DNA of 64,000 nt, taken from contig CAVPQB010000006.1 of the NCBI GenBank assembly GCA_963707505.1, forward strand, positions 544,001 through 608,000, given 5' to 3'. Shown one piece after another: positions 577 through 26,624 of this stretch. Every line of letters begins with the position of its first letter. Position 1 is the first letter of the stretch. Under the pieces are notes generated by a model that worked only from the letters and a program-made list of their open reading frames with translations, had not been told where the DNA came from and did not search any database. The position numbers and the translations under genes are program-made. The DNA is from an uncultured Gemmatimonadales bacterium. Its GTDB lineage: Bacteria; Gemmatimonadota; Gemmatimonadetes; Gemmatimonadales; Gemmatimonadaceae.

Positions 577-693
577 AAACTAGAGAACCAGGCATCCAGT
601 CGGTGTCAGTGTTTCCCTGAGATCGCGCAACCCGTTACCTGACACAAAATCCGGGCTTGCCCGACTGTTTGCAGAAACCCGCGCCCGTACGTT
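577..693. promoter_or_regulatory. Divergent promoter region with three 22-bp-phased 17-bp boxes and two -10 elements
   Basis: Boxes 605-621 GTCAGTGTTTCCCTGAG, 627-643 GCAACCCGTTACCTGAC, 649-665 ATCCGGGCTTGCCCGAC; TACGTT at 688-693 (+) and TAGTTT at 582-577 (-), each 22 nt from a CYGAC end. Confidence 0.7.
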
Positions 694-748
694 CATCTCA
701 TTGCAGTTACTCACCCGCGCTCCACACGAGCCATAAGCGAGGTAGTGT

Positions 749-2800
749 ATGAAATCGTCGGTCAAGCTATATGCGGCTATCGGGTACGTAGGCATCACCC
801 TGAGCGGCCTCGCGTATGCCTGCGCGCCGAGTGTCAAGACGAATGCGTCCGCAGGTCTGCTGGCCGGAGACGCTGCAACTCGAACCTACGTGCCGCCAGG
901 CTCGTACGACGAGTATTACGCCTTCCTGTCCGGTGGCTTCAGCGGCCAGGTGACGGTGTATGGGCTCCCATCCGGTCGTCTCTTCAAGGAAATACCGGTC
1001 TTTTCGCAGTTTCCACAGACGGGCTACGGATACAACGAGGACACCAAGGCGATGCTGACGACGACTTTCGGCCAGGTGCCGTGGGACGATTCGCATCACA
1101 CGGAGATGTCGCTCACTGACGGTGTACCGGATGGCCGCTGGCTCTTCATCAACGGCAATAACACGCCACGTATCGCTCGCATCGACCTCAAGAAGTTCGA
1201 GACCGAGGAGATACTCCAGATTCCAAACGCTGCGGGTGGCCACGCGTCACCGTTCGCGACGCCGGATACCAAATACGTGGTATCAGCGACGCGCTTCAGC
1301 GTTCCGATTCCGCAGACCGATGTTCCCATCGATAGCTACAAGAAGAACTTCAAGGGAACTATCACGTTCGTCAGGGCCGATCAGCCTGGCAAGATGGACG
1401 TTGCCTTCCAGATCATGATGCCCGGATACGACTACGATCTCGGTCACGCCGGCAAGGGACCATCCGACGGCTGGTTCTTCTTCACGACGTACAACTCCGA
1501 GGAAGCGAATACGAAGCTCGAGGTGAACGCGTCACAGGCCGACAAGGACTACATCGCCGCGATCAACTACAAGCAGGCAGAGAGAGTGCATCGCTGACGG
1601 AAAGGCGAAGAAGTTCGGTGGCAGCTACGTCCACAACTATCGTGAATCCGACCACCGGAAGGTCGCGACGAGCGAGACAAAGACACGGTGTGACCATGCT
1701 GTATCCAGCGGATTGCGATGGGCTCGTGTATTACCTGCCGACGCCGAAATCACCGCATGGCGTCGATATCGATCCGTCGGGCGAGTACATAGTGGCCGGT
1801 GGCAAGCTGGCTACGGTCATTCCCGTGCACTCGTACACGAAGATGATCAAGGCGATCGCCGACAAGCAATTCGAGAAGACGATTGACGGTATTCCAGTAC
1901 TCCGTTACCAGGCAGTAATCGCAGGCGAAGTACAGAAGCCGGGCCTAGGTCCGCTACACACCGAGTTCGACGGCAAGGGCAACGCGTACACGTCGATGTT
2001 CATCTCCTCGGAAATCGTGAAGTGGAAACTGGGGACGTGGCAGGTGCTGGATCGTATTCCGGTGTACTACTCCGTGGGGCACCTGATGATTCCGGGCGGC
2101 GACAGCAAGAAGCCGTGCGGGCAAGTATCTTGTCGCGCTCGACAAGATCACGAAGGATCGTTACCTGCCCACCGGCCCGGAGGGTTCTCGCTCCGCGCAG
2201 CTGATCGACATCAGCGGCGACAAGATGAAGATGTTGCTCGACTTCCCGACGATGGGCGAGCCGCATTACGCACAGGCAGTTCCTGCGAGCCTGCTGCAAC
2301 CCGACTCGCTCAAGTTCGAGAAATTGAGGACAACCACAACCCGGATGTCACGACCGCGGAGGCCGACGGCGGAATCACACGCAACGGCAAGCGTGTCGAT
2401 GTAAAGATGATTGCGATTCGCAGTCACTTCGCGCCGGACATTCTGGAGGGTATCGAGCTTGGCGACACCGTGTACTTCCACGTCACCAACATCGAGCAGG
2501 ACTGGAACATCGCGCACGGCTTCGCAGTGTTCGGTGCAAACACCTCCGGCGTGACGCTCCCGCCGGGCGAGACGAGGACGCTAAGATGGGTTCCGCAGGC
2601 AACCGGCATCTATCCGTTCTACTGCACGGATTTCTGCTCCGCGCTGCACCAGGAGATGCAGGGATACGTTCGAGTGTCGCCGGCGGAGATGCACGTGCCA
2701 CTGATCGGCGAACATCAGCCAAGGTCGCAGGCAGACCGCAGAATGGTCGCATGCCTGCCGAGCATGGCGAGCGTGCCGAACATGGGAGCACAGGTGAGAA
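749..2800 (+). CDS. nosZ: Sec-dependent (clade II) nitrous-oxide reductase; several frameshifts, 3' end approximate
   Basis: DEYYAFLSGGFSGQ, WDDSHH, PKSPHG, GPLHTEFD, GHL, EPHY CuZ motifs; CuA HGF...YCTDFCSALHQEM; lipobox-like LAYAC and no Tat motif; pieces lie in different frames. Confidence 0.95.
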
Positions 2801-3420
2801 TGATGTCACGCCTCACCTCGCGAGCGTCACGGCGATTGCGTCGCTCGCTCTTGATCGGGCTCTTCTGTCCTCCCGCTGTGGCGCGTACAGCTCGTCGCGC
2901 CACAGTACCCCGAGGGACTCGGCATGCGGATCGGCATCAGCGATGTCGCGGCGGGACCATGCCGACGGATCTCGACAACATCAACGGTCTGAATCACTAC
3001 ATCGGCATGAAGCACATCACGCCGTCCGCCATTCCCGAGCTGCGGCTACATGCCGTGGATTGTTGGCGCGTCTGATACTACTCGGGCTGCATCGCCGCCA
3101 GGTGGGCAGCAGAAAGTTGCTGCTCGACCTGGATCGGCGGATTCGCCGTCCTTGCAGTGTCGCTGGACTCGTCGATTTCTGGCGCTGGGAATACGACTAC
3201 GGCCACAACATCGATTTCGAGCACGCGATAATCAAGATCCCTGGAATGACTTATCAGCCTCCACTCATGGGTGTGAAGCAGTTACTCAACTTCACGGCGG
3301 TGTCCTGGCCGGATGCCGGTGCGTGGCTGGCATTGGCTGCGTTCGGCGTGGCGCGCTGGCGGTCATCATGGCGTTCAGGCAGCCGCATCCCGGCTGCTCG
3401 GGAACATGCGCGACTCGTAG
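2800..3420 (+). CDS. nosB: NosB-type membrane protein of clade II nos clusters (frameshifted, ends approximate)
   Basis: APQYPEGLGM, INGLNHYIGMK, YDYGHNID..AIIKIPGMTYQPPLMG.KQLLNF motifs across frames. Confidence 0.85.
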
Positions 3421-4697
3421 GTTGCTGCGCCACGGCGTGGCTGCGCTGCTGTTGAGCGTTGGTGTCGTCGCGACGCAGGCGCTGGCGTCGCCCGTGCGCC
3501 CGCCGCAGCAGGTCGTCAACGTGTCACCGACGGGACCGGTGCGTAGGATACGGCGGCGTTGACGCTCGTCGCGCGCGGTGGTACGATCATCGTGCATCCC
3601 GGGAGCTACGCGATAGCAACGATCGTGGTGTCGATGCCGGTACGCATCCTCGGAGAGCGGCGACGCCGTGCTCGATGGCGAGGGCAAGCGCCAGATCATG
3701 ACCGTCACCGGCGGATAGCGTGACGGTGCGCGGCATTGCATTTCGGAACGTCGGCGTCGCGTTCACGGAGGATCTCGCCGCGATCAAGGTTGTGCGGGCG
3801 CGCTATTGCTCGATAGCCGACAATCGGATCGACAACGGTTTCTTCGGCATCTACCTGCAGGAAGCCCAGTACTGCTTCGTGCATCGCAATGTCATACGCG
3901 GCGACACATTCGCGCGATGCGACATCCGGCAACGGTATTCATCTGTGGCACTCGCGCGACATAGTCATCCAGGGAAACCAGGTCTCAGGCCATCGCGACG
4001 GAATCTACTTCGAGTTCGTCCGCGCGAGGCTCACGTTCATGACAATATCAGCACCGGACAATCTGCGATACGGGCTGCACTTCATGTACTCCGACAGCTG
4101 CGATTATGAGGGCAATACATTCCGGCACAACGGCGCGGGTGTGGCAGTCATGTACACGCACCACGTACGGATGGTCGGCAATCGCTTCACGGATAACACG
4201 CGGCGCTGCCGCGTACGGATTGTTGCTCAAGGAGATCTCCGATAGCCGAGCTCCGGCGACAACATCTTCTCCGACAATACCGTCGGGACTGTACGCAGAC
4301 GGGGCCACGCGGCTGATCGCGCATCACAATCACCGTTCGTCAACAACGGTTGGGCGCTCAAGCTCCAGGCGAGCACCGAAGGACGCACAGTTCACGGCAA
4401 CGATTTCGCGGGCAACACGTTCGATGTCGCAACGAACAGTCGCTCGGCAGCTCGAGCACTTTTCGCGGTAACTACTGGTCCGCGTACGACGGCTACGATC
4501 TCAATCACGACGGCGTGGGCGATGTGCCGTACCGCCGGTGCGACTCACCTCCGTCGTCGTCGCGCAGACTGAGCCTGCGCTGATTCTGCTGCGCAGCAAC
4601 TTCCTCTGTCTGCTCGACGCGGCCGAGCGCGTGCTTTCCGGCGCTGACACCCGAAACGCTGGCCGACTCCGCGCCGGCAATGCGCTGGGTACAATGA
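3406..4697 (+). CDS. nosD: NosD maturation protein (frameshifted)
   Basis: Beta-helix repeats, SGNGIHLW, GHRDGIYFEF, LRYGLHFMYS, GNYWSAYDGYDLNHDGVGDVPY. Confidence 0.9.
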
Positions 4698-5434
4698 CCG
4701 AGCCACTGCTGCGTATCACGAACGTGTGCGAAGGCGATTCGGCTCACTGCCCGTGCTTCGCTCCGTAGATCTCGACGTCGCGACCGGTAGAGTCGTGGCA
4801 ATCGTCGGCCCGAACGGCGCCGGCAAGACGACGCTCATCAAGTCGCTGCTGGGTCTCACGCATCCGGATACGGACGACATAACACTTTGGGTAGCAGAGT
4901 GACGGGCGACGAACGCGTATCGTGCCCGCATCGGTTACATGCCGCAGATCGCGCGCTATCCCCGAGAATCTCACGGGCGCCGAGCTGCTCGCGATGCTCA
5001 AGGACCTGCGCGGACCGACAGCGCAGACTGGACACGGAGCTCATCGACTGTTTCGGGCTCGACGACGCTCTCGAGAAGCCCTTGCGCGTTCTATCCGGCG
5101 GCACTCGACAGAAGGTCAACGCGGTCATGGCCTTTCTGTTCTCGCCGGAGCTGCTCGTGCTGGACGAACCGACGGCTGGCCTCGATCCGCTCTCGAGCAG
5201 CGTGCTGAAGGACAAGATTCTGGCCGCGAGCGCGGCGCGGGCAGGACGTTCATGGTCACGTCACACATCATGAATGAGCTGGAAGAACTGGCGGACGACG
5301 TTGCGTTCATGGTCGATGGACGCATGGCGTTTTCGCGGAACGCTCGACGATCTCAAGCGCGTCACGTCGCAGACGACGACTGGAGCGCGCGGTGGCAGCG
5401 ATGATGATGCCGCGACTGTGCGGAGGCGGCATGA
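4694..5434 (+). CDS. nosF: NosF ABC ATPase (frameshifted)
   Basis: GPNGAGKTT Walker A, LSGGTRQK, LVLDEPTAGLDP; ATGA overlap with nosD. Confidence 0.88.
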
Positions 5435-6226
5435 ACACAATGATCAAGGTGCTCAAGTATCAGGCCAGAGATGCGATCCGCAGCCGGTGGTTGATCGCCT
5501 ATGCGCTCTTCTTCCTGCTGGTGACCGATGCGCTGCTACGCTTCACCGGCGATCCGGTAAAGGCTGCAGCTCAGCCTCGTGAGCGTCGTTCTCTTTCGTC
5601 GTACCATTCGTCTCGATCGTCTTCGGTACCGTATATCTCTACAACGCGCGCGAGTTCGTCGAGCTGATTCTCGCGCAACCAGTGAATCGGCGCCAGACGT
5701 ACTGCGGTCTCTATCTCGGCCTCACGCTTCCGCTCGATGCTCGCCTTCGTTCTTGGACTTTCCGTGCCATTCGTCCTTAACGGACACGACGCGTCGGCCT
5801 CGGCACGCTCGTCGCGCTCCTCGTTGCTGGAACAGTCCTGACGTGCGTCTTCACAGCAGTCGCAACGCTCGATCGCCGTGAAGTGCGAGGATCGGTTGCG
5901 CGGACTTGGAGCAGCGATCGGAGTGTGGCTGCTGGTGACCGTCGTGTACGACGGATTCGTATTGTTCGTGCTCGCGGCCTTCTATCGGAGCTATCCGCTG
6001 GAGCGTGCGACACTCGGGCTGATGATGGCCAATCCGATCGACATCGCTCGAGTGGCGCCTGCTGCTGCGATTCGACGGGGCCGCGATGATGGGTTACACA
6101 GGCGCCGTGTTCCTCGAGTTCTTCACCGGTTCCGCAGGGATGATCGTCGCCACGCTCGCGCTGGCGGCCTGGATCATCGCGCCGATCGCATTCGGCGTGC
6201 GTGTATTCCAGAGGAAGGACTTCTGA
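5431..6226 (+). CDS. nosY: NosY ABC permease (frameshifted)
   Basis: KVLKYQARDAIRSRW, YNAREFVEL.LAQPV, NPIDIAR, AAMMGYTGAVF, C-terminal FQRKDF*. Confidence 0.88.
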
Positions 6227-6287
6227 TCAGTAGTCAGAAGCGCAGCAAGACACCAACAACGCTAAAACAATCTTACCGGGTAGAATC

Positions 6288-6740
6288 GTGAATCATTCAG
6301 GTCTCAGGTCGAGCTTTATTGCACTCTCGCTATTGGCGATCGGTGCGTGCGGCGGTGGAGAAAAGAAGGGCGAGAGCGAGCTGGGGGCGCCAGTGTCGTC
6401 GTCGCAGTCGGCTCCGGGCGGCGAGGCGGCTGCACCGACTGGAAAAGTGGTAGTCGTCGAGCTCAACAGCGACGCGCAAGGCAACTACTTCAAGCCTGCG
6501 AAGTTCGAGGTGCATCGCGGTGACGTGATCCGGTTCACACTCAAGAGCGGCGTGCATAATGTGCACTTCCTGCCGGATTCCAATCCCGGCAAGACGAACC
6601 TTCCTCCGGCAAGTGATTTCCTTCAGCTGCCGGATCAAACTCTCGATATGCCCGTCAACCTCGCACCAGGAAAGTACTATTTTCAGTGTGATCCACATGC
6701 AGCGCTGGGGATGCAGGGACACGTGGAGGTAGAACGCTGA
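6288..6740 (+). CDS. Plastocyanin/azurin-family type-1 copper lipoprotein
   Basis: Lipobox LAIGAC; HNVHF...YFQCDPHAALGM provides His/Cys/His/Met ligands. Confidence 0.88.
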   Translation: MNHSGLRSSFIALSLLAIGACGGGEKKGESELGAPVSSSQSAPGGEAAAPTGKVVVVELNSDAQGNYFKPAKFEVHRGDVIRFTLKSGVHNVHFLPDSNPGKTNLPPASDFLQLPDQTLDMPVNLAPGKYYFQCDPHAALGMQGHVEVER

Positions 6741-6760: not shown

Positions 6761-8635
6761 GTGCGAGGCAACAAGGTCACCTACTGGTACAATTCTCCGG
6801 CTGTAATCCCCGGCCTGGCGACGGCCTTTGTCCTCGGGGGTCTCGCGGCATGGACCCTCGGGTCACCCGTATGGGCTCGTTACATATGGATGGCTGGCCT
6901 GGTTTCGGGTGGTGCAATCATCGTAACAGGCACCATCCGCGGTGCTCTGCATGGCCGGTGGGCCTCGGACATCGTAGCGGCCATGGCGATCATCACATCG
7001 GTCGTCATGAACGAGCCGTTGGCCGGCCTGATCGTCGTGGTAATGCAAACCGGCGGCGAAGCGCTCGAGCGATACGCGGAGGGCCGAGCATCGCGGGCCG
7101 TTCAGCAGCTGGAGGCGGATCGTCCCAAATCAGCCCACGTTCTGCGCGGCGGCGAGGTGTCCGATATCAGAGCAGACGAGATCGTCGTCGGCGATAGCGT
7201 AATTGTGCGCGCCGGCGAACTGGTCCCGTGCGATGGAATCGTCGAAGAGGGTAGATCCGAGCTCGACACATCCAGGCTCACCGGTGAATCGCTGCCGCAG
7301 TCGATCGAGCCGGGCGTACCGGTCAGTAGTGGAAGCATCAATGGCGACCGGTTGTTTACGATGCGTGCCACTGCGATCGCCGAGGCCAGTCAGTACGAGC
7401 GCATCGTGCAGCTCGTGCGGGCGGCACTGGAAACCAAGGCGCCGTTTCAACGGATCGCGGATCGCTACGCCGTCTGGTTCACGCCAATCACGCTTGTGAT
7501 TGCGGTTGCCGCAACCGCAGCCACAGGAGATTATCAGAGATTTCTGGCGGTGCTTGTCGTCGCAACGCCGTGCCCACTGATACTCGCCCCGCCGATCGCG
7601 ATAATTGGCGGAATAAATCGCGCGGCTCGACGTCAGATAATCGTGCGTAACGGCGCGGCAATCGAGCGACTCGCGACCGCCAACGTTGCAGTGCTCGACA
7701 AGACCGGCACGCTGACGATCGGGAAACCGGTAGTTCATACAGTCATTCCACACCCACCATTCACGCGCGCCGACGTATTGCGTCTGGCCGGCGCCGTGGA
7801 GCAGGGCGCCGCCCATCTGCTCGCACGTACACTCACGGACGCCGCGAAGGCGGAGAATGAGTCGCTACCGGCCGTTCGGGATGTCGTTGAATCGCCCGGC
7901 CGCGGCGTCACCGGGAGAATAGGCGATGACACCGTGATGGTCGGCTCACACGGTTTTATCGCTGAGCAGCTGACACGGGACGCTGGTAACTCGATTCCCT
8001 TGGATTCGTCCGTCGGGCTCAAGGCCTATGTCGCGATCAATGGAAGATTCGCTGGCGTGGTGGCATACGACGAACAGCTGCGGGATCACGTACCAGTAAT
8101 TCTCTCCGATCTCGAGTCGCTCGGCATTCACCGAACACTCCTGCTGTCAGGCGATCACGGGGACAACGCCCGGGCGATCGCGCAGTCACTCGGTATTACC
8201 GAGGTTCGCGGGGACATGAAACCGGAAGATAAAGTTGCCGTAGTAAAGGAGTTGACTGAGGCCGGTGATCGCGTTCTAATGGTGGGTGACGGAACCAACG
8301 ATGCGCCGGCGTTGAGCGCCGCAACGGTCGGGATAGCTCTAGCTGGTCACGGCGGCGGTGTCACCGCAGAGGCAGCCGATCTCGTGATTCTGGTCGACGA
8401 GCTGAACCGGGTTCCTGAAGCAATTCGTATCAGTCGTCGTAGCATGAAGATCGCACGAGAAAGCGTCTGGGCCGGACTTGGGCTCAGCGGGATCGCGATG
8501 TTGTTCGCAGCCGCCGGCAAAATCGCGCCGGTACCAGGCGCGCTGCTTCAGGAAGTAATCGATATTGCCGTGATACTCAACGCACTACGCGCCAGCGCTG
8601 GCTCGCGCCGGTCCGCTCAGCGTCCCAGCAAGTAA
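6761..8635 (+). CDS. Heavy-metal P1B-type ATPase, P1B-5-like, no hemerythrin tail (start uncertain)
   Basis: LTGES, TPCP, DKTGTLT, GDGTNDAPAL, QEVID motifs. Confidence 0.9.
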   Translation: MRGNKVTYWYNSPAVIPGLATAFVLGGLAAWTLGSPVWARYIWMAGLVSGGAIIVTGTIRGALHGRWASDIVAAMAIITSVVMNEPLAGLIVVVMQTGGEALERYAEGRASRAVQQLEADRPKSAHVLRGGEVSDIRADEIVVGDSVIVRAGELVPCDGIVEEGRSELDTSRLTGESLPQSIEPGVPVSSGSINGDRLFTMRATAIAEASQYERIVQLVRAALETKAPFQRIADRYAVWFTPITLVIAVAATAATGDYQRFLAVLVVATPCPLILAPPIAIIGGINRAARRQIIVRNGAAIERLATANVAVLDKTGTLTIGKPVVHTVIPHPPFTRADVLRLAGAVEQGAAHLLARTLTDAAKAENESLPAVRDVVESPGRGVTGRIGDDTVMVGSHGFIAEQLTRDAGNSIPLDSSVGLKAYVAINGRFAGVVAYDEQLRDHVPVILSDLESLGIHRTLLLSGDHGDNARAIAQSLGITEVRGDMKPEDKVAVVKELTEAGDRVLMVGDGTNDAPALSAATVGIALAGHGGGVTAEAADLVILVDELNRVPEAIRISRRSMKIARESVWAGLGLSGIAMLFAAAGKIAPVPGALLQEVIDIAVILNALRASAGSRRSAQRPSK

Positions 8636-10044
8636 TCGACAACGTCGGCCGCGGTGTACGTGGTGCGCGCGCCGAGAAAATTCTGAATACTCAGCAGGTC
8701 ATCACCGCTCGTCAGTAGCGGCGGCTCATCGATTCCGCCACTTCGCACCTGCGCCTGCCCGATGTTCGCTGTCAGTCCGTTGCAGAGACATTCGCGGCCC
8801 TCTGTGTCCTCCAGCGCGCCGCCCTTCCTGACATATGCGTCCACCGGCTCGGCGGGACACCGATATCCGATGCGGCCATCCGCACCGCGATAGGCGGTGC
8901 GCAGGTAGCCGAGATCGCATTTGCGTTCGCGACGCGGTCCGTCAGCATTGTCACCCACCCATCGCACAACCTTGAACGGATATCCTGTCGGCGACGCACG
9001 GGGATCTGTCACTACATCCAGCTCTCCCAGTGCTGCATGGCGAAGGACTTCTTTCTTGAGCGCCTCCGCAATGCCGGATTCCTCGCAGTAAGCGAACAAC
9101 GTCCCGACCTGAACACCCGCCGCACCTGCAATAAGAGCGTCAACGAGTCCTTTCGGGGAGCCAGCGCCACCCGCGATCCAGAACGGAAGTCCGAGCTCGC
9201 CGATGCGTGCGATGTCGACGACGTCGCGCTCTCCATAGATCGGCTCGCCGCGCACGTTGAGCTGCTGTTCACCCCGCGGTGGCGCGTTGTGTCCACCGGC
9301 GGTCGGACCCTCCACGACGAAACCATCCACGCGGCCATTTGCTTTTCTGGCAAGTGTCGCTGCGAGCGACGTCGCTGCCACTATGGCGATGAATCCCGGC
9401 CGTTTCATCGGCATCGACTGATCGACACCATGAGCTGCGGGATCGAAACTGAGAATTTCGGACTCGCCTGCCGGTAATCCTTCGACGTCGAATTTCATCG
9501 ACGCCATACGGTGCTCGGAGAGCGCATCCAGCACGCCGGGGATCTCACGCGGGATCCCGGCGCCCATCAGTACGTAATCAACGCCCGCGAGCATTGCGCC
9601 GCATAGCGACGCCAGGTTTGGCAACTGTACCTTGGTGAGAAGATTGATGCCAACCAGTCCATCGTGGCCTTCCCTGGCCAGATACACTTCGACGAAATTC
9701 GCAAGCATCGTGATCTGCTGGCGCGCAACGCTGACGTGTTGCTTGTACATGGGAAGCATCTTGTACGGCTGAGCTGCTGCGCGACCATCCGGAAGGAAGT
9801 AGCGCTTGAGTGCATCCTCACCAACGTGGGCGATAGGAAAATGCTCGATTGCCCTCCGCACGTGCCCACCCGGATCGCCGTCCTGGAGTCGGCGCACGAG
9901 AACCGTATCGAGCGCAGTTCCTGAAACGACGCCAAGATGGCCCGCGCGCGCAACAGCGCGCGCCAGGGTCCAGTTTGAAACACCGACTCCCATTCCACCC
10001 TGAATGATGGTCGGAAGCATGATGTTGCGCGGTACAGTAGTCAT
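8617..10044 (-). CDS. Nitronate monooxygenase/FabK-family flavoprotein, long form with four C-terminal Cys
   Basis: IIQGGMG, EGPTAGGH, AGG, GVQVGTLF; C...C...CLC near C-terminus. Confidence 0.85.
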   Translation of the reverse strand: MTTVPRNIMLPTIIQGGMGVGVSNWTLARAVARAGHLGVVSGTALDTVLVRRLQDGDPGGHVRRAIEHFPIAHVGEDALKRYFLPDGRAAAQPYKMLPMYKQHVSVARQQITMLANFVEVYLAREGHDGLVGINLLTKVQLPNLASLCGAMLAGVDYVLMGAGIPREIPGVLDALSEHRMASMKFDVEGLPAGESEILSFDPAAHGVDQSMPMKRPGFIAIVAATSLAATLARKANGRVDGFVVEGPTAGGHNAPPRGEQQLNVRGEPIYGERDVVDIARIGELGLPFWIAGGAGSPKGLVDALIAGAAGVQVGTLFAYCEESGIAEALKKEVLRHAALGELDVVTDPRASPTGYPFKVVRWVGDNADGPRRERKCDLGYLRTAYRGADGRIGYRCPAEPVDAYVRKGGALEDTEGRECLCNGLTANIGQAQVRSGGIDEPPLLTSGDDLLSIQNFLGARTTYTAADVVDYLLGR

Positions 10045-10052: not shown

Positions 10053-10119
10053 AAGCTACGGCTGGCTACTGCTGCGTTCAGTCGGGGTAAGGTGGAAATA
10101 TCGTAAAGGAATCCCCGAC
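10053..10119 (-). promoter_or_regulatory. Promoter with phased boxes and -10 (TAGCTT)
   Basis: GTAAAGGAATCCCCGAC 10103-10119; GTCGGGG half-site at 10081, 22 bp away; TAGCTT at 10058-10053, 22 nt from CCCGAC. Confidence 0.7.
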
Positions 10120-10124: not shown

Positions 10125-11921
10125 TCACTTGCGCGATGGATCTGGTGCCGCCGTAAATACGAAAGTCTTGATTATTGCGAATGCAAACAGCACGAGCAAC
10201 AGCGACTGAAGGGCGACAGTCTCGACCGTGGGGAACAATCCGAGCCACGAGATATCGGGTACATGCGGCAACGGTGTCATGGGCAGCACGTTGCCCTCCT
10301 GCAATTCCCGTATTCCCCGGCCCGCGAATACGAACGCCATGTAGTACAACAGCAGGCTGGTTGCCGCGAAGAACATCCGCATCGGAATCTTCACGCCGAA
10401 CCGGTAGAACAGAACGAATACAACAGCCAGCGCAACGGAGCCCGTGACAATTCCCAGCGTGAGTGGCAGCGCCGCGCCGTGCGCCTGACTGAACAGAGCC
10501 TGATAGAAGAGAGCCGTCTCCGCGCCTTCCCGGTATACGGCAAGGAACGCGATCAACATCAACGCTCCGCCACTACCGTGCTCCAGCGCTACCGACACCT
10601 TTTCTCTGATGAACTTCTGCCATTTGTGCGCTTCAACCTTGGAGATAAGCCAGTAGCTGACGGAGAAGAGCACCACGACTGCAACCAGCAGCGATACCGC
10701 TTCGACGATTTCACTGCTCGCTGGAATCGCGGCGAGCGCAGTCTTGAGGATCACCGCAGTTATTGCACTCGCGACGACACCTAGCACGACGCCGATCCAG
10801 ATGGAGCGCAACCTATCGCGGTTTCCCGTCTTGATGAGAAGCGCGACTACCGCACCAACAACGAGTATCGCTTCGAATCCTTCTCTGAGGATTATGATGA
10901 ACGATTGCCAGAACATCGTTACCGCACCTTCGTCCGTTCCATTTACGAGCGCCACCGCGCGCGGCAGAGCGTCTGTGATCGCGTCGCGAGCACGAGTAGC
11001 CGCACGTGTATCACCGCCGCGCACGGCGACTCTGAACTCACCGAAGGAGCGCTCCAGCAATGAAACCAGTGCGGGATCCTTGGCGCGCACGACAGTTTCG
11101 AGTGGCTCGAACGCAAGGTAGGCGTCGAATGCGCCGTCGCTTGCCGAGGTAACGTCTCCGCGCCTTGCCGATGCAAGCGAGCTGTCCAGCAATGCCGCTA
11201 TCGACGACGCGGTGCTGCTGGCGTTGGTTCCCGTGCCGACAGCCTGCGATGGGAGCGACATCGGCTGTCCGCGCAGCTGATAGACATAGTTCAGTACCTC
11301 CCATCGCTGCTGAGGGGTAAGCGATTCTCCGAACGCCGGCATGGCGGTGCCATTGATGCCGACGGACGCCACATCGTACGCAAGAGCCGGAGTCAGATTG
11401 GGAGTTGCAGTCATGCTTCCAATTGCCGGAACAGGGGTCGAGAGAGTCCGCGCCATCGGACCGTCGCCGAGCCCGCGTGCGCCGTGGCACGACGCACAGC
11501 TTTCCGTGAAGACCTTTCGGCCAGCCACGGAATCGAGCGGCATCGACGGTAGCTCCAGCTCGGCTGCATTGCCCAGTGCCGCAAGCATGCGCATCCGGTA
11601 TTGCTCCAGAGCGGCGGGCGGTCGTTTTTGCGCCACGGCACCGATCAGCTCCCCGAGTGCCGACCTGGCGGCGGGCGCGTCATGTCCCTCCAGTCGGCCC
11701 GCGACCTCACGGGCGTTCTCCAGGAATCCGGCGACCTCGGCGTACTCCTCCGCCGAGATCAGCTGGCCTCGCTTATCTACCGCCAGTCCGTACTCGGCGA
11801 CCGCGACCGATACGATGCTCGCCAACCTTCTGGCTGCCGTATCCTGGGATCTCATGGTTGCTGGCGTGAGCCATAGTGAGGCGAGGGTGCACAGACACCC
11901 TATCCGTCGCTTGCAGTTCAT
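10125..11921 (-). CDS. Cytochrome c / FTR1-family iron permease fusion
   Basis: Signal peptide, CASCH heme motif, REGFE and REGAE REXXE motifs in the C-terminal TM domain. Confidence 0.9.
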   Translation of the reverse strand: MNCKRRIGCLCTLASLWLTPATMRSQDTAARRLASIVSVAVAEYGLAVDKRGQLISAEEYAEVAGFLENAREVAGRLEGHDAPAARSALGELIGAVAQKRPPAALEQYRMRMLAALGNAAELELPSMPLDSVAGRKVFTESCASCHGARGLGDGPMARTLSTPVPAIGSMTATPNLTPALAYDVASVGINGTAMPAFGESLTPQQRWEVLNYVYQLRGQPMSLPSQAVGTGTNASSTASSIAALLDSSLASARRGDVTSASDGAFDAYLAFEPLETVVRAKDPALVSLLERSFGEFRVAVRGGDTRAATRARDAITDALPRAVALVNGTDEGAVTMFWQSFIIILREGFEAILVVGAVVALLIKTGNRDRLRSIWIGVVLGVVASAITAVILKTALAAIPASSEIVEAVSLLVAVVVLFSVSYWLISKVEAHKWQKFIREKVSVALEHGSGGALMLIAFLAVYREGAETALFYQALFSQAHGAALPLTLGIVTGSVALAVVFVLFYRFGVKIPMRMFFAATSLLLYYMAFVFAGRGIRELQEGNVLPMTPLPHVPDISWLGLFPTVETVALQSLLLVLFAFAIIKTFVFTAAPDPSRK

Positions 11922-11988: not shown

Positions 11989-12411
11989 TCAGCCAGGGGT
12001 AGCTCCGGTGCGTCGCCGGGCACCGTCTATAGTCCGCCAGATATTGTATACAAAACAGTATGCCGCGATGGCTGACAGGACGCCTCCCGTACCGAGCACG
12101 AACGGCGCCGCCGGCACTGCATTTGGTGCGAGGCAAAAGCCAACGACCATCAGTGCCAGCCCAGCATTGGCGAGCCACCATTGCAGCGCCGCAAGGCTGC
12201 GCATGTGCAACGGGTGCCCTGTGAAACGCGGAATTACGTGATACGCAACGCCGTAGATCATCATCGTCACAAAGCCCAGCAGATTCATGTGAACGTGCGC
12301 GGGCCGGTAGATGATGAGCTGCGGATGCACGGCCATGCCGACGCCGAGCGTTACACCGAGCGCGAGCCAGGTGATGCTTGCTTTGAGAAACGCCTTTACG
12401 AACCACTCCAT
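11989..12411 (-). CDS. 4-TM heme-copper-oxidase-homology membrane protein
   Basis: AHVHMNLLGF..MIYG..YH..PRF resembles the HxH helix of HCO subunit I; four hydrophobic helices. Confidence 0.7.
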   Translation of the reverse strand: MEWFVKAFLKASITWLALGVTLGVGMAVHPQLIIYRPAHVHMNLLGFVTMMIYGVAYHVIPRFTGHPLHMRSLAALQWWLANAGLALMVVGFCLAPNAVPAAPFVLGTGGVLSAIAAYCFVYNIWRTIDGARRRTGATPG

Positions 12412-12474: not shown

Positions 12475-12541
12475 AACTTATGCGAACAGGCATTTGACGG
12501 GTGTCGGTGTTTCCCTGAAGTAAGTGCGGCGATCTCCTGAC
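12475..12541 (-). promoter_or_regulatory. Promoter with phased boxes and -10 (TAAGTT)
   Basis: GTCGGTGTTTCCCTGAA 12503-12519 (15/17 identical to 605-621), second box ending CCTGAC at 12541 (+22); TAAGTT at 12480-12475. Confidence 0.7.
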
Positions 12542-16391: not shown

Positions 16392-16434
16392 ACGCTAGCT
16401 TGACTCCATGTGGTGAGGTGTGACGGATGTCTCA
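16392..16434 (-). promoter_or_regulatory. Class II Crp/Fnr-type promoter of the mrp operon
   Basis: TGTGA-CGGATG-TCTCA 16419-16434; TAGCGT -10 at 16397-16392; box centre about -41.5; ATG 6 nt after the -10 (leaderless). Confidence 0.65.
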
Positions 16435-21010: not shown

Positions 21011-21015
21011 TTCAC

Positions 21016-21098
21016 TGACTCCCTACGCCGGTACGAACCGGATCAGGTTCTACGGGACTCTCTCAGCCTGCGCCCTTCGTGGGCAGGCACCCCGGTCA
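21016..21098 (-). ncRNA. TPP riboswitch
   Basis: Minus strand GGGGTGCC...GGCTGAGA..CCCGTAGAACCTGATCCGGTTCGTACCGGCGTAGGGAG, the canonical THI-box core. Confidence 0.95.
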
Positions 21099-21148
21099 AT
21101 GGATCAATTTACAAAGTGATGCGTGATGGCGCCACGTTCATGCGCGGA

Positions 21149-23038
21149 TCACTTGGGGGCTGTTTCGACTTCCTCGTCGAGGGGAGAGCAGAGCCACGCA
21201 TACAGTCCGACCGTGAAGATTGCGCCGCCCAGCAGCATGAGCCACAGCTGCTCGTGCCAGATGAGGCCGATGAATGCGATGGTAATTCCGGCAGCGGTAA
21301 TCAACGGCTTGACTGTTCCCGCTGGCACGTCGATCCCGAGCTCCGCCGCTGTCGATTCAGTCTCGCGCTGGTACAGCGCGGAGTCGTCGGCGATCGGGCG
21401 GCCATTATTGTCCCACAATGGATATCGTGACTCTATGGTCGGCACCACCGCGTAGTTATAGACCGGCGGCGGCGATAGTGTGGACCACTCGATCGTCGGT
21501 GCGTCCCATGGATTGTTGCCTGCGATCGCACCATGCCGGCGGCTTCGCAGAACGTTGATCACAAAAATCAGCGTCGCTACGGCGATGATGTACGCGCCGA
21601 TGGTCGATAGCTGGTTGTCCAGAGTGATACCCTGTGCGGCATCGTACGTATACACTCGTCTCGGCATTCCATTCAGACCGGCGAAGTGCATGGGGAAGAA
21701 GGCGAGGTTCGCGCCGATCAGCGTCAACCAGAAATGCCATTTGCCGAGTGATTCATCGAGCAGATGGCCGGTCACCTTGGGGAAGTAGTAGTAGAAGCCG
21801 GCAAACAATCCCATCATTGTTCCGCCAAACAGCACATAGTGAATGTGCGCGACGACGAAATACGTGTCCGTCTGCTGCAGGTCGGTAGGCGCTGATGCGT
21901 GCATGACACCGGAAATTCCACCGATGGTGAACATGCCGACCAGCCCCAGCGCGAAGAGACAGGCGGTAGCGAAACGGATCGAACCTCCCCACACGGTCGC
22001 AAGCCAGTTGAAAATCTTGATCCCTGTCGGGATCGCGATGAGCATCGACGTAACGCTGAAAGTAGCGTCGGCGACCGGCCCCATGCCCACGGCGAACATG
22101 TGGTGAGCCCAGACACCGAATGCGAGAAATCCAATCAGTATCAGCGAATACACCATTGCCGGATATCCAAACAACGGCTTGCGCGCGAAGGTTGGCAACA
22201 CTTCGGAAACCAGACCGAACGCCGGGAGAATCAGGATGTACACTTCCGGATGACCGAACAGCCAGAACAGGTGCTGCCACAACAACGGATCGCCACCGGC
22301 CGCAGGTTCGTAAAACTGCGTGCCGAAGAATCGGTCGAACAACAGAAATGTCAGCGCGATCGTCAGGACCGGGAACGAAACCAGGATCAGGAACTGAGTG
22401 ACGAATGCCGACCATGTGAATACCGGCATCCGCATCATGCGCATGCCAGGCGCGCGCAGGTTGATGATGGTCGTGATGAAGTTGAACGACGAGGCGAGCG
22501 TGGACAGTCCCAGGATCTGCAATCCGATCACATAGAAGTCCATGTTGAGACCGGGATTGTACAACCGCGTGCTCAACGGCGCATATCCGAACCATCCACC
22601 GTTCGGTGCCGCGTTCCACAGCCAGCTCGCGTTGATGAAGAGTCCACCGAGCAGATAGACCCAGTAGCTGAACGCGTTGAGTCGGGGGAAGGCGACGTCG
22701 CGCGCGCCGATCTGGAGAGGGACGAGGATGTTGAAGAAGGCCGCGCTCAACGGCATCAGAGCCATGAATATCATGGTCGTGCCGTGCATCGTGAATATCT
22801 GATTGTACAGCTCGGCGGACACCAGTCGGCCGTTTGGCCCAAAGAGCTGAGCGCGAATTACCAGCGCTTCGATCCCACCGAGCAGGAAGAATGTGAGCGA
22901 AGTGTAGAGGTAAAGCTGGCCAATTCGCTTGTGGTCGGTAGTGGAGATCCAGCTCCAGATACCACTTCTTCCTTTCCTTGCTTCCTGCGGCGCACCTTCC
23001 ACGGACGTCCGTGGAGGAGCGATCACCGTCGTTGCCAT
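21149..23038 (-). CDS. ctaD: Cytochrome c oxidase subunit I, A1 type, stand-alone
   Basis: TDHKRIG, TMHGT, FPRLN, FGHPEVY, WAHHMF, VAHIHY, GMPRR. Confidence 0.96.
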   Translation of the reverse strand: MATTVIAPPRTSVEGAPQEARKGRSGIWSWISTTDHKRIGQLYLYTSLTFFLLGGIEALVIRAQLFGPNGRLVSAELYNQIFTMHGTTMIFMALMPLSAAFFNILVPLQIGARDVAFPRLNAFSYWVYLLGGLFINASWLWNAAPNGGWFGYAPLSTRLYNPGLNMDFYVIGLQILGLSTLASSFNFITTIINLRAPGMRMMRMPVFTWSAFVTQFLILVSFPVLTIALTFLLFDRFFGTQFYEPAAGGDPLLWQHLFWLFGHPEVYILILPAFGLVSEVLPTFARKPLFGYPAMVYSLILIGFLAFGVWAHHMFAVGMGPVADATFSVTSMLIAIPTGIKIFNWLATVWGGSIRFATACLFALGLVGMFTIGGISGVMHASAPTDLQQTDTYFVVAHIHYVLFGGTMMGLFAGFYYYFPKVTGHLLDESLGKWHFWLTLIGANLAFFPMHFAGLNGMPRRVYTYDAAQGITLDNQLSTIGAYIIAVATLIFVINVLRSRRHGAIAGNNPWDAPTIEWSTLSPPPVYNYAVVPTIESRYPLWDNNGRPIADDSALYQRETESTAAELGIDVPAGTVKPLITAAGITIAFIGLIWHEQLWLMLLGGAIFTVGLYAWLCSPLDEEVETAPK

Positions 23039-23114
23039 GCGTCCATCCCGTGTGCGAAATGGGCAGAGCTCGAAGTGGCGATGCACGGACCATTTCGACA
23101 GTGCCTTCCGACCC

Positions 23115-23157
23115 AGTCTATGGCGATGAACGGTTGGCTGGAGTGACTTATGTCACG
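23115..23157 (-). promoter_or_regulatory. Class II Crp/Fnr-type promoter of ctaD
   Basis: AGTGA-CTTATG-TCACG 23142-23157; TAGACT -10 at 23120-23115; same 21-nt gap as the mrp promoter. Confidence 0.7.
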
Positions 23158-23169
23158 TTTGCAGAGCGT

Positions 23170-23892
23170 TTATCTCCCCTGAGCGCGTGCTCGCAGCTTG
23201 GCAACATCAGGAATCCGCATGCGCCCGCGCGGGAGTGATTCCACAAGGCCCGTGCGCTTGAGCTGTCGCATCGCCCGTGAAACGGATTCTCTGGCGCTGC
23301 CTATCTCCATCGATAGCTCTTCCTGTGTACGGTCGAGCTTGATCTCGATGCCGAACTGGGTGTTGGTTCCCGATCTTTCCGCGTATCCCACGAGCAGCAT
23401 TGCCAGCCGCGCAGCGACATCGTGGAACGCGAGAGTCTCCGTCACGTGAACGAGATGGCGGAGGCGCTTGCCGAGTGCACGAATTATGGCGTGGGCGATG
23501 TCCGGATGCTCGCGGTACATCGTCTCGAAGTCATCGCGCGCGAGAAACATCAGGCGTGACGGTTCCACTGTGATTGCGGACGCCGGATACGAGCCGCCGT
23601 CAAACAGCGGCAACTCGGCGACCGGGCGCCCGGGACCTTCGATGTGCAATACCTGCTCCTTGCCGTCAGGACTCGTACGATAGATGCGAACTCGTCCGGA
23701 CTGGATCACGTAGAGGCCACGGCACGCGTCGCCAGCGGCAAACAACACCCGTCCGGCGCCGAAGTCGCGCGCAACACACCGGGCCGCGAGCTGGTGAATC
23801 GCCGTGTCTTCCAGCTCCGAGAAGATCGCCATCTGCCTGAGCAGTTCGGCAATCCCGGCTGACGAATCTTCAGTCGATCTTTCCCGTATCAT
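23170..23892 (-). CDS. Crp/Fnr-family regulator (Dnr/HcpR-like, no FNR N-terminal Cys cluster)
   Basis: cNMP-type fold LYVIQSGRVRIYR.SPDGKEQ, ELPLFDG; HTH TQEELSMEIGSARESVSR. Confidence 0.93.
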   Translation of the reverse strand: MIRERSTEDSSAGIAELLRQMAIFSELEDTAIHQLAARCVARDFGAGRVLFAAGDACRGLYVIQSGRVRIYRTSPDGKEQVLHIEGPGRPVAELPLFDGGSYPASAITVEPSRLMFLARDDFETMYREHPDIAHAIIRALGKRLRHLVHVTETLAFHDVAARLAMLLVGYAERSGTNTQFGIEIKLDRTQEELSMEIGSARESVSRAMRQLKRTGLVESLPRGRMRIPDVAKLRARAQGR

Positions 23893-24668
23893 GGAGAGCC
23901 GATCCGGAGCGGCGACCACGAGGGGGGATCGCTGGCCGGAAAGCTGTCGACAGTACTGTCGCGGAATATCTCACGGTTGTCGCGCGCGCGACGTTGCTCG
24001 ATCGCGCTGTCGAACAGCGCACGCGTGGAGTCCACGCAGCTCTCGCCGACACATGTGAGCGGCGGTACGGAGACGATCCTGCGATTCCGGATCTTCGCCA
24101 TCGCGATCGGCGTACGCATACGCGTGCCGTCAGCCAGCATCATGGTCGGCGTTCCACGGACGTGATATTGCTCACGACCGATCCTGCCTTCCTCCTCGAT
24201 GGCGGCACGCGCGGCCGGACTCGCGAAGTCGCGCTCGAATCGTGCGAAGTCAAGGTCGGTTGAGCGTGCGATCTCCAGCAACACGCTGCGATCTCCGATG
24301 TTGCGGCTCTCGCCAAAGAACGCGCGTCGCACTGCGAGATCGAGCTCCATGGCGATATTCATTCCTTGCTGCCGTGCCGCCCATACTGCTTCGAATGCCG
24401 GAAGCGTGGTAGTTGGCCAGTCGGCCGCGGTGTACGGGACGAACGATGCGTCTGGCTCCTGAATCGCTGCGAGCCACCATTCCTGCTCCAGTACATCACG
24501 TGGCGGCGCCTCTCCATTGAGAAGCTCCAGCGGGAAGAAACGCGTGTATGCCAGCACGCGGCCGGCGTATTCGGGCTGAACACGATGCACGCGGACAGCC
24601 ATCACGTAGCACCAGGGACAATAATATTCGGCCCATTCCCACAATTCCGCGATCGATCGATCACTCAT
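23889..24668 (-). CDS. DsbA/FrnE-family thioredoxin-fold protein
   Basis: EYYCPWCY, VRGTPT; C-terminal DSFPASDPPSW tail; ATGA-coupled to the crp gene. Confidence 0.82.
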   Translation of the reverse strand: MSDRSIAELWEWAEYYCPWCYVMAVRVHRVQPEYAGRVLAYTRFFPLELLNGEAPPRDVLEQEWWLAAIQEPDASFVPYTAADWPTTTLPAFEAVWAARQQGMNIAMELDLAVRRAFFGESRNIGDRSVLLEIARSTDLDFARFERDFASPAARAAIEEEGRIGREQYHVRGTPTMMLADGTRMRTPIAMAKIRNRRIVSVPPLTCVGESCVDSTRALFDSAIEQRRARDNREIFRDSTVDSFPASDPPSWSPLRIGSP

Positions 24669-24732
24669 TGTTAGCGACCTCCCGTCACTGCGCGAGCAAG
24701 AATGTACTCGCTCGCCTCCGCATCTGCGTGAC

Positions 24733-24748
24733 TGTGACAATCGTCACG
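24733..24748. promoter_or_regulatory. Crp-type box between divergent dsbA-crp and DUF59 genes
   Basis: TGTGA-CAATCG-TCACG. Confidence 0.6.
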
Positions 24749-24786
24749 TTCACAGACTTGGCTGAGTACGATTATTCAATCTATCG

Positions 24787-25098
24787 ATGGAAACACACGA
24801 CACAAATGCGGCGGACATCTGGAACGCGCTACGTACCGTCATCGACCCTGAAATTGGCCTCGATATCGTTACGCTGGGTCTCGTATATGATGTCACCTTC
24901 GGTTCCGATTCTGCGGTACCTGGCGAGAGCGTCCGTGTCACGCATACACTCACAACGCCCGGATGTCCGATGGAGCGTGTGATAACGTCCGGCATTCGCG
25001 CGGCTGTGGGTCGTGTCCCCGGCGTCGTGACAGTGGAAACGAACCTTGTGTGGGATCCCATGTGGCACTCCGGGATGATCGCACCGGGCGCATGGTGA
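24787..25098 (+). CDS. DUF59/SufT-like metal-sulfur cluster assembly factor
   Basis: [20 protein letters not shown]...TLTTPGCPM...LVWDP.W. Confidence 0.92.
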
Positions 25099-25104
25099 TC
25101 CTTA

Positions 25105-25335
25105 TTACTTAGTCTCGCGTGGGTCGCAGCACTTCACGCATTCGAGCGTCTTGCCAAGAAAGGTCGCGCGACCCGATTCAGTCGTCACCCAGGTTCTGAC
25201 CTGCCACGGCGGGTCGTGCCGTACGTGTTGCGTGTGTCCGCACTCGAGATCGGCGACCCAGTGGTTCTCTTCATCCTGATGGAATCCGATTATCCGTCTT
25301 GGAATCGCCGACCCAGCGCATGCATCCCGCTGCAT
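25105..25335 (-). CDS. DUF3565-family small Cys/His protein
   Basis: IIGFHQDEENHWVADLECGHTQHVRHDPPWQ.R.WV...G..LEC.KC. Confidence 0.85.
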   Translation of the reverse strand: MQRDACAGSAIPRRIIGFHQDEENHWVADLECGHTQHVRHDPPWQVRTWVTTESGRATFLGKTLECVKCCDPRETK

Positions 25336-25366
25336 TACAAACTCCTTCGATGTCCGTCGATGTCGC

Positions 25367-26386
25367 CTAGTGCGACATTGTGGTGAACTGCTTTGGTGTT
25401 CCAACCTGCACCATCCCGACCGCGCCCTTCTCGGCGTCGGCGAATGAGTGGGTCACGAAGGGATACAGGCCTTCGCCACTCGCGTCCTTGTTGAATACCG
25501 CCTCGAACACGACTCCGCCACCAGCTGGCACCGGATAGGTCTGAACACCTTCCAGAGCATGACTCGGATTTCCGTCAGGATAGACACGATCGAATATCGC
25601 GCCGACGAGATGGAAGTCACTGTCGAAGTTCGGTCCGGCGTTCACTACATAGAAACGTACTCTGTCGCCAACCGCAACCTTGAGCGGGTGTTCCTTGTAC
25701 TGGCCCGCGCGACCGTTGAAGACAACGTAACTGGCCTGCTTTGCGCGCTCGGCGTCCCAGTCAGCCTGTACCACGCTGCTGTCGGCAGTCGGCTTGGTGT
25801 AGAACTCGCTCTGCACGATGACGAATTCCTTGTCGGCCTTTGTGCCCCAGCCATCGCGCGGATCCACGATGATCGGGAGATACATCCCCTGCATGATGTG
25901 CATGGTGACCGGCGGAGTTCCGCAGTGGACCATGAACGCGCCTGCATCGCGTGCGATGAACTCGAATGCTACCGAATCCCTGGGAAGTATCATCCGATAC
26001 GCGACGTTCGCCGCGATCTGCGCGGCGTGAAAGTCGATCGAGTGCGGCATGTTGGATTCGTTGACGACGTTCACACGAACCCGATCACCCTGCCGCACGT
26101 GTATTACCGGACCAGGCACTGTGCCGCCGAATGTCCATCCATCGTACTTCACGCCGTCCGCGATCTCTATCACGGCATTCTTGATCGGGATGCGGTATTC
26201 CTTGATGCCAGCGTCGGACGCGTCGGTCAGACGCGCGTCGTACACTGGTGTCGTGGCAGTTACGACCTTGTCGAAATCAATATGTTGCACCTTGTTCGCG
26301 CGGATCGCGTTGTCGGTGAACCCCAGTACACCAGCTGTGAGGACACCTGTTACGGCCAGCGCTGCAAGAATCTGTGTACGTGTCAT
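25367..26386 (-). CDS. nirK: Copper-containing nitrite reductase
   Basis: WTFGGTVPGP, PHSIDFHAA, VHCG..PVTMHIMQGM, NAGPN..SDFHLVG.IFD, YPFVTH; T1 and T2 Cu ligands present. Confidence 0.9.
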   Translation of the reverse strand: MTRTQILAALAVTGVLTAGVLGFTDNAIRANKVQHIDFDKVVTATTPVYDARLTDASDAGIKEYRIPIKNAVIEIADGVKYDGWTFGGTVPGPVIHVRQGDRVRVNVVNESNMPHSIDFHAAQIAANVAYRMILPRDSVAFEFIARDAGAFMVHCGTPPVTMHIMQGMYLPIIVDPRDGWGTKADKEFVIVQSEFYTKPTADSSVVQADWDAERAKQASYVVFNGRAGQYKEHPLKVAVGDRVRFYVVNAGPNFDSDFHLVGAIFDRVYPDGNPSHALEGVQTYPVPAGGGVVFEAVFNKDASGEGLYPFVTHSFADAEKGAVGMVQVGTPKQFTTMSH

Positions 26387-26452
26387 GATCTTCTCCGGAT
26401 GATGCGAGATGTTTTGTTTCTCGCGTGCGGTTGTTCCGCATGTTGCATCGGG

Positions 26453-26624
26453 AAGCTAGGAGGAATATGGCATCCGATCTGTCGGGCGAAGCTGGAAATT
26501 CGCTGCGGGAATCGCCCCCCTACGGGTAAAGGAAAACCCTACCCGGAGTGGCTCGTGTAAGGGATTCCCGTACATATTTCGTTGTGGCTCCCCGACTTTG
26601 GAGAGCCTTCGTCAGGGGTAGCTT
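26453..26624. promoter_or_regulatory. Divergent nirK / two-component promoter region with 17-bp boxes
   Basis: GTAAAGGAAAACCCTAC 26526-26542, GTAAGGGATTCCCGTAC 26557-26573; CCCGAC ends at 26481 (-) and 26596 (+), each 22 nt from TAGCTT (26458-26453; 26619-26624). Confidence 0.72.

Follow-up and report, generated by a model that had tools for sequence, protein, structure and literature searches.

A conserved promoter signature at clade II nosZ and nirK in Gemmatimonadaceae, most likely that of a NarL-family regulator with targets beyond denitrification

Genes and promoters at the locus

The stretch of DNA analyzed here (the window) comprises 64,000 nucleotides from an uncultured Gemmatimonadales bacterium (genome G000, C6:544001-608000; assembly of 3.66 Mb, 83% complete), and carries a nitrous oxide reductase gene (nosZ), a nitrite reductase gene (nirK) and a two-component system whose promoters share one architecture. 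The names Gemmatimonadaceae or Gemmatimonadota are borne by close members of the protein clusters of two of its genes, nirK and a nitronate-monooxygenase-like (NMO) gene, and by almost all of the best 80 loci of the response regulator. On the forward strand lie a Sec-type clade II nosZ (TIGR04246; 749-2682, 3' end approximate), which is frameshifted in this assembly and intact in relatives, a membrane HisKA_3 kinase (26631-27908) with two predicted transmembrane (TM) helices, a HAMP region and H211, and a NarL/FixJ-family response regulator (27905-28564; receiver plus GerE helix-turn-helix, HTH), the proposed binder of the boxes described below. The reverse strand carries a DUF542/ScdA_N gene (300-530, its ATG probably at 530) with a cupin gene after it at 1-303, the NMO gene (8617-10044), genes for a COX1-like short membrane protein (11989-12411) and a cytochrome c-FTR1 fusion (10125-11921), a nirK-like copper nitrite reductase gene (25367-26386) and, downstream of nirK, a CRP/FNR-family regulator (23170-23919), probably a second tier of control. 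The cluster members of the nirK-like protein are named NO-forming nitrite reductase, and its TIGR02376 score was below the cut-off (195 versus 296 bits).

An earlier note on this DNA had described six promoters in which a half-site CYGAC ends exactly 22 nt before a TAnnTT hexamer, and all six pairs were recovered, coordinate for coordinate and on the same strands. The divergent nosZ and DUF542 promoters have three boxes in common: Box 1 (605-621) is proximal for DUF542 and third for nosZ, Box 2 (627-643) is the middle box of both, and Box 3 (649-665) is proximal for nosZ, with a predicted centre at about -43. The -10 hexamer of nosZ lies at 688-693 on the forward strand (predicted start about 700), and that of the DUF542(ScdA_N)-cupin-...-xfp-ackA run at 577-582 on the reverse strand (predicted start about 570). 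Three further promoters are on the reverse strand: that of NMO (10053-10119; -10 at 10058-10053, boxes 10081-10097 and 10103-10119, predicted start 10046), which is near-leaderless with the ATG 8 nt past the hexamer; that of the COX1-like/FTR1 unit (12475-12541; -10 at 12480-12475, boxes 12503-12519 and 12525-12541, predicted start 12468); and that of nirK (26453-26542; -10 at 26458-26453, boxes 26481-26497, 26503-26519 and 26526-26542, predicted start 26446). The kinase-regulator promoter (26557-26624, forward strand) has boxes at 26557-26573 and 26580-26596, a -10 at 26619-26624 and a predicted start at 26631, and is predicted to be leaderless and autoregulated. The box series 605/627/649, 10081/10103, 12503/12525 and 26557/26580, likewise claimed before, were borne out, and nirK adds the series 26481/26503/26526.

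The anatomy of these promoters was derived from 54 intergenic sites of G000 and same-genus loci; the sites were picked by pattern, with CYGAC and the hexamer as selection criteria and the parts further upstream left free. Counting from the first base of the hexamer, CYGAC occupies -27 to -23, a TC is conserved at -38/-37, and the linker of 5 to 6 nt is A-rich. A distal palindrome of about GTMRGG-N5-CCYKAC lies at -61 to -45, with half-sites again at -83. The promoter-proximal box is usually half a palindrome, its left arm being (A/T/C)TC(A/C)G instead of GTMAGG; in many cases the distal box is the better palindrome. The layout is thus one of 17-bp boxes phased 22 to 23 bp apart, the last abutting the -35 region; placing the hexamer at -12 to -7 puts the box centres at about -43, -65 and -87.

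The hexamer itself is of an ordinary kind. In G000, TANNNT peaks 6 nt before ATG (61 starts versus about 11 at other distances) and is the leaderless, housekeeping-type -10 signature of this genome; CYGAC was found at 22 nt in 1 of 125 such leaderless-type promoters. Leaderless-type starts seem to be common in G000, with TANNNT 5 to 7 nt before ATG in 125 of 2090 crude open reading frame (ORF) starts. For the kinase, the ATG is 6 nt past the hexamer in 11 of 11 curated orthologue sites.

Specificity and conservation of the pattern

The pattern CYGAC-N22-TANNTT has exactly six matches in the window, none of them beyond the six pairs, in comparison to a mean of 0.40 and a maximum of 3 in dinucleotide shuffles of the window, of which 0 out of 100 reached six. 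All other gaps from 15 to 30 nt gave 3 matches altogether. Genome-wide, the raw count at the 22-nt gap was 17, in comparison to 4 to 21 for gaps of 10 to 40 nt, and is thus without enrichment; 9 of the 17 matches fall within C6:524.5-570.6 kb, which makes the 22-nt spacing a feature of this island and not of promoters in general. The island with motif promoters spans 46 kb, or 1.3% of the genome, and starts 20 kb upstream of the window. That upstream part (C6:524.5-544 kb) encodes a multicopper oxidase, a haem-PAS kinase, a pyridoxamine-oxidase-like protein, SulP, a pyridoxal phosphate (PLP) decarboxylase, an HlyIII-family protein, YceI, two universal stress proteins (Usp), phosphoketolase and acetate kinase. 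Five motif promoters lie there, preceding the multicopper oxidase-haem-PAS kinase-SulP run, YceI, Usp, the HlyIII/PLP-decarboxylase run and an unnamed ORF, so that the six promoters first described, although all present, are an incomplete set of 11.

To score the genome without its own sites, a profile was built from 38 sites with G000 and its close twin G015 left out of training. The ten best matches of this held-out profile over 3.66 Mb were all island promoters (28.9 to 40.9 bits), in comparison to a maximum of 19.7 bits in shuffled genomes. Three promoter classes among the top matches (NMO, Usp and orf6397) had no training examples, and the NMO promoter was the best match genome-wide at 40.9 bits. 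The kinase promoter scored 20.3 bits because its linker is 1 nt longer. A match at C4:661899 was rejected, being inside an ORF. A plastocyanin-like cupredoxin gene outside the island (C4, about 30.4-30.9 kb) has a 21-bit site 62 nt upstream and is a candidate distant regulon member. Two other search tools were less sharp: a covariance model without structure, run on 47 genomes, returned the 11 island promoters as the top matches in G000, and with 110 candidates scored per genome it missed known nosZ-upstream sites; a loose IUPAC pattern run on 8 genomes gave 6 to 25 matches each, too noisy and mostly away from known island promoters. As to content, the regulon proposed earlier for nosZ and nirK does include both, and it is not a dedicated denitrification circuit, since Usp, YceI, multicopper oxidase, phosphoketolase/acetate kinase and others belong to it as well.

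The motif is conserved in orthologous promoters, where the earlier note had proposed to look for it. Among 11 same-genus genomes, 10 had DNA upstream of nosZ, and all 10 nosZ promoters carry the pattern in both directions; the kinase-regulator promoter carries it in 12 of the 13 same-genus loci with upstream DNA. Over 42 loci, mostly of the same genus (two from G000, some overlapping), the 22-nt gap occurred 60 times in comparison to 0 to 8 times for other gaps. Of the 68 loci from other genera that were anchored on the regulator, 25 have a match above 19 bits, and when only the boxes were scored, nAnnnT stood at exactly 22 nt in 27 of 41 matches versus 0 to 5 elsewhere. The neighbors in these 68 loci were the kinase (59), PAS kinase (52), Usp (33), pyridoxamine-oxidase-like protein (28), multicopper oxidase (14) and YceI (14), with few denitrification genes (nirK-like 4, nosZ 2).

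This persistence disposes of chance, or functionless local duplication of one promoter, which is refuted as the sole explanation: some promoters are indeed alike (of 39 box positions, DUF542 and COX1-like agree at 24, and the geometry of nosZ/DUF542 is seen again in the orf6397/HlyIII pair), but the spacers of the six promoters match pairwise at 1 to 9 of 18 positions only, yet boxes and spacing persist across many genera.

Regulator and sensor kinases

In our reading, at a probability of about 0.72, it is the NarL/FixJ-family regulator 27905-28564 that, once phosphorylated, occupies the boxes; it would thereby activate nosZ and nirK, the operon that encodes it and a low-oxygen gene set like that of DosR. 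The regulator matches PF00072 (N-terminal receiver) and PF00196 (GerE/LuxR HTH) above cut-off, and its PDB matches include VraR, NarL and DevR (the last at E 5.8e-32). To compare its distribution with that of the motif, we surveyed the 301 phylum genomes that are at least 90% complete, of which 116 have nosZ. Upstream DNA was taken from 60 of the 116 (31 being all family genomes outside the genus and 29 others chosen so as to cover many genera), to which G031, G035 and G022 were added, and up to 3.5 kb was scanned to allow for genes before nosZ. All 32 Gemmatimonadaceae genomes have the regulator, and 5 of the 31 others have it at E<=1e-60 (G181, with 46% identity, being counted as negative). 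At a threshold of 15 bits, set after the scores had been seen, nosZ-upstream boxes were found in 19 of 32 family genomes, 2 of the 5 regulator-positive genomes outside the family and none of the 26 without the regulator, which combined is 21 of 37 versus 0 of 26. Covariance-model matches at E<0.02, with few candidates scored, occurred in 7 regulator-positive relatives and G010 and in none of the regulator-negative genomes outside the family. An identical recognition helix in 70 of 70 orthologues was discounted, as the peptide had served as the search word. Of the earlier proposal that the adjacent two-component system activates nosZ, nirK and itself, the regulator thus stands as the likely activator, placed next to the -35 and autoregulating, while the adjacent kinase is not the likely sensor.

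The adjacent kinase has two hydrophobic helices joined by a short loop, with no periplasmic domain, and contains no cysteine, hence no NreB-type Fe-S cluster. Its sensory part matched only generic HAMP proteins in the ESM Atlas, and Pfam reports no GAF family for either kinase. The second kinase, about 45 kb upstream and behind a motif promoter, has a PAS domain that matches FixL and DosP structures (best E 2e-15). It is found in 52 of the 80 regulator loci, and H85, M102 and R105 are invariant in 52 of 52 orthologues; H85 and R105 we take to be the proximal His and distal Arg, which lie 20 residues apart in FixL/DosP-type haem-PAS domains. Among the 32 family genomes 28 have the haem-PAS kinase, usually next to the regulator, in contrast to none of the 25 genomes in family f2. 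The regulator likely takes its input from a haem-PAS kinase resembling FixL and DosP and not from a sensor of the NreB kind. Oxygen sensing would fit Gemmatimonas aurantiaca, which is reported to begin N2O reduction after O2 depletion and to need prior partial oxia (PMC9530729).

The same regulator could also bind the boxes in response to another signal, the adjacent membrane kinase sensing membrane redox, NO/nitrite or copper and the haem-PAS kinase being incidental. HisKA_3 kinases normally pair with NarL-family regulators, and the adjacent kinase is of this type, is co-transcribed with the regulator, and keeps H211 in 64 of 64 aligned orthologues along with an invariant polar motif in TM1; the targets moreover include copper proteins and DUF542/ScdA_N. 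The kinase has, however, no recognizable ligand domain, its membrane paralogue in G023 has Arg in place of the phospho-accepting His, and in most genera it is the haem-PAS kinase that stands beside the regulator, so that we consider a non-oxygen signal unlikely.

Alternative binding factors

Several observations weigh against the regulator as binder, or against its proposed input. Within the window, the 17-bp palindrome alone gave 3 matches at up to 1 mismatch versus 1.83 expected; the palindromes claimed earlier therefore hold as box series with 22-23 bp phasing, but the palindrome by itself is not enriched and the proximal box is usually half of one. The exact 22-nt hexamer holds within the genus and at most regulator-linked promoters, but nAnnnT is at 22 nt in only 9 of the 19 high-scoring family nosZ sites in other genera. 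Despite the regulator, the nosZ regions of 13 of the 32 family genomes do not exceed 15 bits (8 of them do not exceed 10), and one of these low-scoring genomes, G227, has a CRP-type box at nosZ instead. G211 and G087 have regulators 53-55% identical and no motif at nosZ or near the regulator; conversely, G010 (86% complete, 360 contigs) has one well-formed site, with regulator and kinases not found. The haem-PAS kinase is HisKA-type and 45 kb from the regulator in G000; at E<=1e-25 it was not found in 4 of 32 family genomes nor in three motif-bearing genomes outside the family, and it was found in two regulator-negative f6 genomes. Finally, the presence of the regulator largely tracks family membership, and its co-occurrence with the motif is therefore not independent evidence; the p-value of this association is accordingly given no weight.

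This confounding, together with G010, G211 and G087, is what speaks for another transcription factor, co-inherited with the Gemmatimonadaceae, that would bind the boxes and have the regulator operon merely as a target. We regard it as quite unlikely, since 3 of the 5 regulator-positive genomes outside the family have the 22-nt layout (G286, G128 and G279, the last at 11.6 bits with TATCAT at 22 nt), the regulator-negative G139 of the same family as G279 is without it, and box size and phasing fit a LuxR-type HTH dimer.

It is very unlikely that CYGAC(A/T) serves as the -35 and TAnnTT as the -10 element for an alternative sigma factor, or that the pair forms a long-spacer sigma70 promoter dependent on a MerR-type twisting activator. 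CTGACA is one base off TTGACA and the spacing is rigid, but the 21-22 nt spacer exceeds the ranges of both sigma70 and ECF factors, it is almost without information, unlike MerR operators, and the same half-site recurs 22-23 bp upstream and in both orientations beside a housekeeping-type hexamer.

Binding by the CRP/FNR-family protein 23170-23919, as in classical denitrifiers, is hardly credible. Its gene is within the island, and proteobacterial DNR-type regulators control nirK and nosZ (PMC1274295). However, it was rejected as binder, since an orthologue (E<=1e-30) was not found in 18 of the 21 motif-positive genomes, and since it has a candidate box of its own. A CRP/FNR regulon would call for TGTGA-N6-TCACA or TTGAT-N4-ATCAA near -41.5; at 2 mismatches or fewer, none of the 11 promoters has a box for FNR or for CooA, and a single weak match to CRP turned up, while the CRP-type box, distinct from the motif, occurs elsewhere: at 16419-16434 upstream of Mrp-membrane protein-DUF2249, at 24733-24748 upstream of DSBA-CRP, and before nosZ in the regulator-negative G169, G253 and G130, where this CRP gene is adjacent.

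Relation to characterized regulators

The closest geometry is that of BvgA at Bordetella fhaB, with sites at -88.5/-66.5/-44.5 and the best match upstream (PMC9708447); in both cases NarL-family dimers would meet imperfect palindromes 22 bp apart with the last site by the -35, the centres here being predicted at about -87/-65/-43. The BvgA sites measure 14 bp in comparison to 17 bp here, the BvgS kinase is a periplasmic sensor of the hybrid type, and BvgA controls virulence genes where the targets here are respiratory and stress genes. At yeaR and ogt, Escherichia coli NarL likewise acts as a LuxR-type HTH activator from a position (-43.5) immediately before a weak -35, with targets in nitrogen-oxide respiration (PMC10853779). 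Unlike NarXL/NarQP, the adjacent kinase has no periplasmic nitrate domain, the bit scores against cut-off were 77.5/578 for NarX and 154.5/250 for NarL, and no NarL 7-2-7 site was matched within 1 mismatch in the 56-kb island scanned. Staphylococcal NreC, too, is a NarL-family regulator that binds GC-rich palindromes, and in the absence of oxygen it activates nitrate/nitrite genes (PMC8139620, PMC5694512). Its kinase NreB is soluble, with a Cys-bound [4Fe-4S] cluster in a PAS domain, whereas here the adjacent kinase is membrane-bound without cysteine and the second is of PAS haem type, and no NreA was seen in the annotated loci. The labels NreC-type and NarL-type given earlier were thus dropped, the kinase having neither cysteine nor a NarX-type periplasmic domain and the island no NarL site. 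The half-site also resembles the UvrY box TGTAAG-N6-CTTACA (PMC4682653), but the spacer here is one base longer, and the sites abut the -35, whereas UvrY binds far upstream of small-RNA genes. UvrY/GacA is the best NCBIfam match of the regulator, at 161.3 bits below the 280-bit cut-off.

Mycobacterial DosRST (DevRS) has a NarL-family regulator, two kinases, GAF-haem sensing, autoregulation, a Usp-rich regulon and the core GGGAC-N4-GTCCC. The present system is similar in regulator family, number of kinases, predicted haem sensing and autoregulation, and Usp-rich content, but its haem domain is PAS, not GAF, its regulon includes nosZ and nirK, and the DosR core is absent from the motif promoters. 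FixLJ-FixK2 likewise combines a haem-PAS kinase, a LuxR-type regulator and a downstream CRP/FNR protein; there the CRP/FNR tier drives clade I nosZ, FixK2 reportedly activating nosRZDYFLX in rhizobia, whereas here the boxes are directly at the clade II nosZ promoter, and the regulator reached 63 bits on the FixJ model (cut-off 255). By the features tested, the regulator is in the NarL/FixJ family and outside NreBC, NarXL, DosRST and UvrY. By analogy, it would be like BvgA/NarL in geometry, like DosR in gene content and probably like FixL in input.

Neighboring features

The nosZ gene and the nos genes downstream are frameshifted at about 1500-6100 of the window. Because of the frameshifts, nosZ matches TIGR04246 in pieces (387 + 383 bits, cut-off 625), in comparison to 698-912 bits for same-genus orthologues. 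In soil contigs one base is missing at 1685 in all 4 runs and one at 2118 in 3 of the 4, which together with intact same-genus nosZ suggests that the frameshifts are assembly errors, though they may be real decay. A cytochrome c oxidase subunit I gene (21149-23086), above the TIGR02891 cut-off, is positioned after the CRP gene; a subunit II gene was not identified beside it, and the oxidase gene is absent at this spot in several same-genus loci.

The CRP-type box (TGTGAC-N4-GTCACR-like) marks what is likely a separate regulon of the CRP/FNR gene. In G169, G253, G130 and G227 it lies 218-248 nt before the nosZ model start, and nosZ seems to be wired to CRP/FNR in these genomes. In 18 of the 32 family genomes, a divergent NsrR/RirA-like Rrf2 gene that encodes at least 3 Cys adjoins nosZ. 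It was rejected as binder of the boxes because G000 has no orthologue. An NsrR-like palindrome overlaps the -35/-10 region in some family genomes, with 1 mismatch to the consensus of PMC1274295 in G047 and 4-7 in most, and NO-responsive Rrf2 repression on top of the activator is possible on these grounds.

Proposed mechanism and significance

The sites are observed, as are their spacing and conservation, their specificity for the island and their co-occurrence with the regulator; they are best read as targets of an autoregulated NarL/FixJ-family activator that, throughout the Gemmatimonadaceae, controls a low-oxygen regulon similar to that of DosR. Dimers of the regulator would load first on the better distal boxes (centres about -65 and -87) and then fill the weak proximal box at about -43, and RNA polymerase would thereby be recruited to promoters without a consensus -35, as with BvgA at PfhaB and NarL at yeaR. 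We lean, at slightly better than even odds, toward oxygen as the input via the FixL/DosP-like haem-PAS kinase 45 kb upstream, in which case the adjacent membrane kinase would be a second input or a phosphatase; the CRP/FNR gene, with a box of its own, would add a second tier of control. A broader and more tentative proposal, to which we give somewhat less than an even chance, is a family-wide oxygen master switch in which a single NarL-family regulator, with a haem-PAS kinase and an intramembrane kinase/pseudokinase as its inputs, drives clade II nosZ directly without FNR/DNR, nosZ being wired by lineage to this regulator, to CRP/FNR, or to the activator plus an NsrR-like repressor.

In the open full-text literature (subscription journals being outside the scope), we found no description of a Gemmatimonas nosZ promoter and response regulator circuit, nothing on clade II nos with a kinase and regulator circuit, and no regulator named for the onset of Gemmatimonad N2O reduction. 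The promoters thus appear to carry a real, conserved regulon signature, undescribed within the literature searched, most likely that of a NarL-family regulator and broader than denitrification. Gemmatimonadetes nosZ transcripts are reported to be abundant in agricultural soils and to correlate with N2O reduction rates (PMC9530729). For the clade II nosZ switch, the analysis names a protein, a site, predicted starts and a candidate sensor, and it sketches a first outline of a regulon for a phylum of which few members are in culture. The signature, as the likely binding site of the regulator, would give a control switch open to test in a major group of N2O consumers in soil. If the broader proposal is true, the genome sequence of a soil Gemmatimonad would suffice, by way of the box, to predict when it turns on N2O reduction.

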